DNA from: Escherichia coli
GTDB taxonomy: Bacteria; Pseudomonadota; Gammaproteobacteria; Enterobacterales; Enterobacteriaceae
NCBI RefSeq assembly: GCF_003334335.1
Contig: NZ_QOWQ01000086.1
Reading direction: 5' to 3' (one strand)
DNA: 2,993 nt
How positions within the stretch are numbered: position 1 is the stretch's first letter; each line of letters opens with the position of its first letter. This document shows positions 1 to 256 of the stretch, one piece after another. The position numbers and the translations under genes are program-made. The notes under the pieces were generated by a model. The model searched no databases, was not told the origin of the DNA, and was given only the letters and a program-made list of their open reading frames with translations.

Positions 1-157
1 CTTTATTATCGAGTTCGGTGACCGCCTGGACGGCCACTTCTGAGAAAAGGTATTTACACAGAATCCTGAACAGGCTCGAAAGGTGCGATGATTGCGTTAT
101 GCGGACACTGCCATTCGGTGGGAAGTCATCATCTCTTAGTATCTTAGATACCCCTCC

Positions 158-176
158 AAGCCCGAAGACCTGCCGG
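158..176 (+). promoter_or_regulatory. B12 box, conserved core element of the cobalamin riboswitch
   Basis: Seen: AAGCCCGAAGACCTGCCGG, which fits the B12-box consensus (approx. rAGYCMGgAgaCCkGCc) and lies ~85-100 nt upstream of the btuB start codon, the expected position. Confidence 0.8.
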
Positions 177-226
177 CCAACGTCGCATCTGGTTCTCATC
201 ATCGCGTAATATTGATGAAACCTGCG

Positions 227-250
227 GCATCCTTCTTCTATTGTGGATGC
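227..250 (+). promoter_or_regulatory. Hairpin sequestering the btuB ribosome-binding site (riboswitch expression platform)
   Basis: Seen: perfect 6-bp inverted repeat GCATCC (227-232) / GGATGC (245-250) with a 12-nt pyrimidine-rich loop. The 3' arm contains the only SD-like GGA (245-247), 9 nt upstream of ATG 257. Established: btuB translation is repressed by B12-dependent occlusion of the RBS by leader structure. Confidence 0.65.
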
Positions 251-256
251 TTTACA

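Follow-up and report, generated by a model that had tools for sequence, protein, structure and literature searches.

The AdoCbl riboswitch of Escherichia coli btuB (RF00174) is reportedly the archetypal riboswitch of Nahvi et al. 2002. The btuB untranslated region (UTR) is 240 nt in length, and AdoCbl represses the wild type by 97% (PMC11162775). Within this leader, the P14 hairpin has been experimentally characterized as the sequester of the Shine-Dalgarno (SD) sequence, the behavior of the EP2 and EP3 mutants showing that P14 mediates repression by AdoCbl, and destabilization of the P13 pseudoknot abolishes the 97% repression (PMC11162775). The kissing loop that ties the aptamer to the expression platform is formed by L5 and L13 (PMC5359240). 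OmrA/Hfq control of btuB operates independently of the riboswitch (PMC11162775). BF23-type phages and E colicins use BtuB as their receptor, and mutation of btuB confers resistance to both groups (PMC10644984). The second element considered here, IS1414, is the insertion sequence (IS) of McVeigh et al. 2000 that carries astA/EAST1, as cited in PMC12585946.

We analyzed a 2,993-nt stretch of DNA corresponding to the btuB-murI region of E. coli, hereafter referred to as the window, which contains the known btuB riboswitch with an IS1414 insertion, i.e., an established element bearing a lesion of a familiar type. As this riboswitch is a textbook element, its identification is not new. The useful point is that the present copy is broken. 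Automated annotation, or an unaided reader, would describe the disrupted copy as a working cobalamin riboswitch.

An IS1414 end within the btuB leader

Comparison by BLAST with complete E. coli genomes revealed that positions 78 to 2993 of the window are 100% identical to the sequences of K-12 MG1655, C600, and many natural isolates. Positions 78 to 300 matched the annotated riboswitch and btuB in all of the 5,426 complete E. coli genomes, and the native counterpart of position 78 onward is annotated as "cobalamin riboswitch" in RefSeq. With +1 set as the G of GCCGGUCC and a UTR of 240 nt (PMC11162775), position 78 corresponds to +62 of the leader. Positions 78 to 256 are accordingly 100% identical to +62 to +240, the window and the native leader having in common the B12 box, P7 to P12, P13 with L13, P14, and the btuB start. 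Unlike the native leader, the window has IS1414 in place of +1 to +61. The breakpoint, at 77/78, corresponds to 1500/1501 of the K-12 reference locus and coincides with the start at position 79 that the first-pass annotation had assigned to its riboswitch, everything located 5' of this point being IS1414.

The presence of an IS1414 end in place of the 5' part of the aptamer is nearly certain. Positions 1 to 77 (as for all features given below, on the + strand) are identical at 77 of 77 positions to IS1414 copies present in many E. coli genomes, with matches ending at 77, 78, or 79 depending on the flank, and the match of positions 1 to 79 in the complete genomes was to an "IS256-like element IS1414 family transposase." A full reference copy of IS1414 spans 1,315 bp (763 to 2077 of its locus), has imperfect inverted repeats of 30 nt, and encodes a transposase assigned to the IS256 family (NF033543, 426 bits). 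The window retains the last 77 nt of the element, corresponding to its right end, with the transposase gene reading toward btuB. The terminal 13 codons of this gene, together with its stop codon as placed by the annotation (FIIEFGDRLDGHF*, positions 2 to 43), are identical to those of the full reference copy, and the terminal inverted repeat ends with ...ACAGGCTC at position 77. Positions 1 to 77 thus display two features of the IS256 family, a terminal inverted repeat and a transposase C terminus, in the form found in the reference copies. The window differs from other IS1414 copies in the site occupied, since the junction between IS1414 and the btuB leader was found in 0 of the 5,426 complete E. 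coli genomes.

The ...ACAGGCTC terminus was present in the 10 IS1414 copies that were sampled, and a perfect 8-bp target duplication was detected for 9 of them, in a sample biased toward flanks starting with GA. Because 8-bp duplications border 9 of the 10 sampled copies, the sequence GAAAGGTG that adjoins the IS end (positions 78 to 85, leader +62 to +69) is predicted to be one copy of the target duplicated upon insertion of IS1414.

The window is the whole of its source contig. Its left edge consists of precisely 77 nt of the IS repeat, and its right edge lies in an rrn promoter repeat. This pattern, a unique segment located between repeats as expected for a short-read de Bruijn assembly with k = 77, would support the existence of a real junction in the reads and account for the fact that the other half of the leader is not seen.

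The aptamer remnant and the expression platform

Positions 78 to 191, which are 100% identical to 1501 to 1614 of the K-12 reference locus, are what remains of the AdoCbl aptamer of btuB on its 3' side. This remnant comprises the P7 to P12 peripheral extension, the B12 box/J6-3, and the 3' strands of P3 and P1, which are both partnerless. The 5' strand of P1, P2, the 5' strand of P3, P4 with the L4 T-loop, P5 with L5, and the start of P6/P7 are absent from the window. The IS1414 end replaces the 5' 44% of the aptamer, and about the back 60% of the riboswitch is kept. The window consequently lacks the complete riboswitch core, composed of P1, P2, and the P3 to P6 four-way junction with the L4 T-loop. 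It also lacks the L5-L13 kissing loop, as L5 (ACGCG, ~1485 to 1489 of the native K-12 locus) lies upstream of the breakpoint, leaving L13 in place but partnerless.

Covariance-model searches reflected this organization. The whole window gave an RF00174 score of 18.5 bits (E = 0.084) for a match spanning positions 6 to 191, with many noncanonical pairs at the 5' end, versus 87 bits (E = 2.6e-22) for the native K-12 leader. Positions 78 to 300 alone gave a 5'-truncated match of 29.2 bits (E = 5.2e-6) extending over model positions 85 to 189 of 189. Model positions 1 to 84 have no homologous sequence in the window, in which IS1414 occupies positions 1 to 77. The full window and the remnant both scored under the curated gathering threshold of RF00174, which is 31.5 bits. 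The first-pass annotation had described positions 79 to 256 as a classic cobalamin riboswitch and had proposed a search with RF00174 as a check; the search did not return a significant match at the Rfam threshold, and the scores together with the alignment to the native leader rule out an intact riboswitch. That description was correct in identifying genuine E. coli btuB sequence followed by an intact SD hairpin and incorrect with respect to the aptamer, whose 5' part has been replaced by IS1414. Instead of a working "classic translational cobalamin riboswitch," the locus harbors a disrupted aptamer remnant joined to an intact expression platform. The location of the B12 box at positions 158 to 176 was confirmed: the sequence AAGCCCGAAGACCTGCCGG aligned with high posterior probability to the AGCCAGGAGACCuGCC block of RF00174 and is identical to that of K-12, with AGACCTGCCGG invariant across 20 enterobacterial leaders. 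Most likely, the ligand pocket and the L5-L13 kissing loop are unable to form, and AdoCbl control is lost. This assessment, according to which there would be neither a ligand pocket nor signal transmission, is based on the anatomy of the missing segment and on the literature.

The expression platform comprises two hairpins. P13 (positions 184 to 226), whose loop L13 has the sequence CGCG (positions 203 to 206), was recovered in the MFE fold with pair probabilities of 0.92 to 0.97. The SD-sequestering hairpin P14 (positions 226 to 251), recognized from the fold and from its role in the literature, pairs the anti-SD at 227 to 232 (GCAUCC) with 245 to 250 (GGAUGC), with an additional G226-U251 wobble. 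The SD itself, GGA at 245 to 247, is located 9 nt before the AUG. P14 folded alone with a free energy of -9.9 kcal/mol, a value matched by 5 of 200 shuffled sequences (z = -2.2). The hairpin was predicted in every transcript context examined; in the longer ones, its pair probability was 0.63 to 0.98, and the probability of the SD being unpaired was at most 0.02. The window therefore contains an SD-occluding platform (P14) 5' of a B12-related gene (btuB, from position 257).

Conservation of the two hairpins was assessed in 20 distinct enterobacterial leaders, which are the orthologous leaders recovered in scans for a non-native base after GGTG. In P13, 90% of the cells were paired, with 2 compensatory pairs and an invariant CGCG loop. 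The arms of P14 were invariant and 100% paired, with a variable loop, such invariant pairs carrying no covariation evidence. In the leaders from Citrobacter, Salmonella, Klebsiella, Enterobacter, Trabulsiella, and Intestinirhabdus, invariance extended to the 25-nt sequence GACGCGCAGCGGTAAGGAAAGGTG, within which both L5 and the insertion site are located, in addition to the CGCG of L13 and both arms of P14. The base following GGTG was C in E. coli only and A or G in the other enterobacterial leaders.

The remaining proposals of the first-pass annotation agree with these results. It had placed a 6-bp hairpin with an SD-like GGA in its 3' arm at positions 227 to 250, immediately 5' of btuB; this hairpin corresponds to P14, is predicted to form both alone and in longer contexts, and precedes ATG 257, which is the annotated start of btuB and agrees with the signal peptide MIKKASLL... 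encoded from this position. The TTG and ATG codons at positions 212 to 217, which had been regarded as part of the leader, are located in the 3' arm of P13, upstream of the SD. The 63-residue open reading frame (ORF) at positions 18 to 209 is present in the program-made ORF list and had been considered spurious; it spans the IS/leader junction out of the transposase frame, and a protein look-up with the junction-spanning translation found no such protein on record. TTG 212 and ATG 215 share the frame of btuB, so that the mechanically defined ORF comprises 629 residues versus 614 for the annotated protein.

Insertion sequences at btuB in other genomes

The btuB leader was intact in 5,422 of the 5,426 complete E. 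coli genomes, a leader being scored as nonintact if <80% of the segment 1400 to 1700 of the K-12 reference locus was found in one place. The four genomes without an intact leader include that of E. coli MEI008 (NZ_CP074680.1), whose btuB leader carries an IS1 copy (2200 to 3010 of the MEI008 locus). The 9 bp duplicated there, GGAAAGGTG, correspond to 1500 to 1508 of the K-12 reference locus. The IS1 transposase gene has the same orientation as btuB, whose ORF is intact. The target of IS1 in MEI008 consists of the same 8 to 9 bp that adjoin the IS1414 end in the window, where the predicted duplication GAAAGGTG corresponds to 1501 to 1508. The two alleles therefore have in common the locus and the target, the orientation of the IS, and an intact btuB ORF. 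They differ by the IS family, IS1 and IS1414 being unrelated, by the strain background, as indicated by a single-nucleotide polymorphism in the MEI008 leader, and by the fact that both junctions are visible in MEI008. The presence of two unrelated ISs at one leader site suggests a hotspot or selection. A target motif of IS1414 was considered as the cause of the shared insertion site and rejected, as the 8-bp duplications of nine copies did not reveal any common motif.

The btuB ORF itself is interrupted by IS421 (IS4-like) in ECO-104, by IS2 in RM10410, and by ISApl1 in EC416, the sequences of these genomes being otherwise 100% identical to that of the window. These insertions are, as in the window, IS lesions of the same receptor gene. 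They split the coding sequence of btuB, thereby generating null alleles, whereas the insertion described here cuts only the leader and leaves the ORF intact.

Additional scans were performed in collections containing few E. coli sequences. The exact junction was not found in a collection of genome contigs, and a metagenome scan for a non-native base before GAAAGGTG did not reveal any further junction. Scans for a non-native base after GGTG recovered only orthologous leaders (from Citrobacter, Salmonella, Klebsiella, and others) without insertions. The other junction of IS1414 was not found among BtuB gene contexts.

Selection for reduced BtuB production is a plausible driver of the IS hits on this gene. 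The insertion of IS1 and IS1414 at the same site, together with the recurrent IS hits on btuB, suggests that IS-mediated downregulation of BtuB is a repeated natural route. Phages or colicins are plausible selective agents, in which case the locus would provide a small example of the inactivation of a regulatory RNA in the wild. A stronger proposal is that +61/+62 is a recurrent, selected landing site for ISs, at which insertion generates a "riboswitch-off" allele that lowers BtuB production, confers phage and colicin resistance, and is tunable or reversible, since insertion there spares the coding sequence, P14, and regulation by OmrA. We regard this proposal as speculative and rather improbable.

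Expression of btuB and the downstream region

The reading that we favor, with a probability of about 0.65 for the full chain of events, is that the presence of IS1414 in the leader has resulted in the loss of B12 control and in a low, B12-blind expression of BtuB. The 1,315-bp element would have inserted between +61 and +62 of the leader, within the 5' strand of the P6/P7 region. A simple insertion would have generated a left junction consisting of ...GCGGTAAGGAAAGGTG followed by GAGCCTGTACATAGATTTG... and a duplication of GAAAGGTG, which is a prediction, as one IS junction only is contained within the window. The IS would have moved PbtuB and the 5' portion of the aptamer to a position ~1.3 kb upstream, or these would be lost. 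The four-way-junction pocket and the L5-L13 kissing loop would be missing from the btuB-proximal RNA, thereby abolishing AdoCbl-dependent repression. Transcripts of btuB would arise by read-through out of the IS, having started either at the transposase promoter or at PbtuB, on the far side of the element. The stable P14 hairpin would still oppose translation initiation, leading to low, B12-blind production of BtuB with preserved OmrA/Hfq control, and the net effect would be a knockdown of the receptor for BF23/T5-like phages and E colicins. The strain thus probably produces BtuB, its receptor for B12, phages, and colicins, without responding to B12 and likely at a reduced level.

Several predictions bear on the transcription and translation steps. 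Intrinsic terminators were predicted neither in positions 1 to 300 of the window nor in the full IS1414 sequence, thus rejecting a terminator as a block to read-through and indicating that btuB mRNA likely originates from read-through transcription initiated at the transposase promoter or, across the IS, at PbtuB. A strict scan for σ70-like promoters in positions 1 to 300 did not detect any candidate. A relaxed scan of the same segment detected eight candidates, versus 3.6 ± 2.3 in shuffled sequences, with 7 to 8 of 12 matches at best. These include a weak hybrid promoter candidate with a -35 element located in the IS (CTGAAC, positions 66 to 71) and a TG-extended -10 element (GATGAT, positions 87 to 92). 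In view of the empty strict scan and of the 7 to 8 matches of the relaxed candidates, we do not claim that the IS end provides an outward-reading or hybrid promoter. Forcing the SD open cost 7.4 to 9.9 kcal/mol in truncated transcripts versus 4.7 kcal/mol in the native leader. Upon opening, positions 223 to 228 paired with positions 182 to 187, a candidate anti-anti-SD that is retained in the window. These energies and the low probability of an unpaired SD lean weakly toward an OFF-like, poorly translated state, and since folding also predicts P14 in the native ligand-free leader, they are weakly informative on ON versus OFF. The sites of OmrA/Hfq control, located in the btuB coding region, are intact.

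The same disruption may have locked the remnant leader in an ON state, leading to constitutive, B12-blind, and possibly elevated production of BtuB driven by IS read-through or by a hybrid promoter. According to this unlikely scheme, P1 cannot form and AdoCbl cannot stabilize the OFF fold composed of L5-L13 and P13-P14, leaving positions 182 to 187 free to pair with the anti-SD. The pairing of the retained 182 to 187 segment with positions 223 to 228 in the forced-open fold is consistent with such a mechanism, as are the co-orientation of the IS with btuB, the lack of a predicted terminator, and the existence of a weak hybrid promoter candidate. In addition, destruction of the pseudoknot abolishes repression rather than expression (PMC11162775). 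However, compared with the native leader, the truncated RNAs require an additional 3 to 5 kcal/mol for opening of the SD, and P14 keeps a probability of 0.63 to 0.98. Moreover, the native promoter is 1.3 kb away, no good promoter was found, and the other natural IS insertions inactivate the btuB ORF, pointing to selection for less BtuB. At the other extreme, the two halves of the aptamer, although ~1.3 kb apart, could reassemble in a read-through RNA initiated at PbtuB. The IS would then amount to a very large insertion within the P6/P7 strand, and repression of btuB by AdoCbl would be maintained. The co-orientation of the IS and the lack of a predicted terminator would permit this, and, for a simple insertion, one RNA would hold both halves and an 8-nt duplicated joint. 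The function of the btuB riboswitch depends on the order of cotranscriptional folding, which argues against the reassembly of distant halves. The insertion also lies in a strand connecting core helices, away from the terminal loops, and the inserted RNA is translated since it contains the transposase ORF. We consider the persistence of AdoCbl control by this route to be extremely improbable.

The favored reading also presupposes that the junction is a fixed state of the genome. It might alternatively be an artifact of the assembly graph or belong to a minority subpopulation, with an intact leader in the main allele. The presence of exactly 77 nt of repeat at the contig end, which would be typical of a de Bruijn assembly with k = 77, is compatible with this possibility, and the junction was recovered neither from the 5,426 complete genomes nor from the genome and metagenome scans. 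Conversely, a contig that continues past the IS end into unique sequence can be assembled only if reads or k-mers cross the junction, and the breakpoint is located exactly at the true terminus of the IS, which is unexpected for a random chimera. The independent insertion of IS1 at the same site in a finished genome further indicates that such alleles exist. An artifactual or minority junction is therefore highly unlikely.

Downstream of the leader, btuB (positions 257 to 2101, as defined by the ORF list and the annotated start) is intact and encodes a TonB-dependent B12 receptor of 614 residues, which is the commonest E. coli BtuB allele in public data. It is followed by murI (positions 2046 to 2903), whose ATG start at 2046 was placed by offset from the annotation of MEI008. 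The start of murI overlaps the final 56 nt of btuB in a different frame, an overlap that is already known. The right end of the window corresponds to the rrnB P1 promoter/UP-element region (...TTGTCAGGCCGGAATAACTCCCTATAATGCGCC...), a repeat common to other rrn operons and present at a median of 4 places per genome in complete E. coli genomes. Positions 2902 to 2993 gave a partial, 3'-cut match to Rfam Ysr197, with 39.4 bits versus a gathering score of 167.
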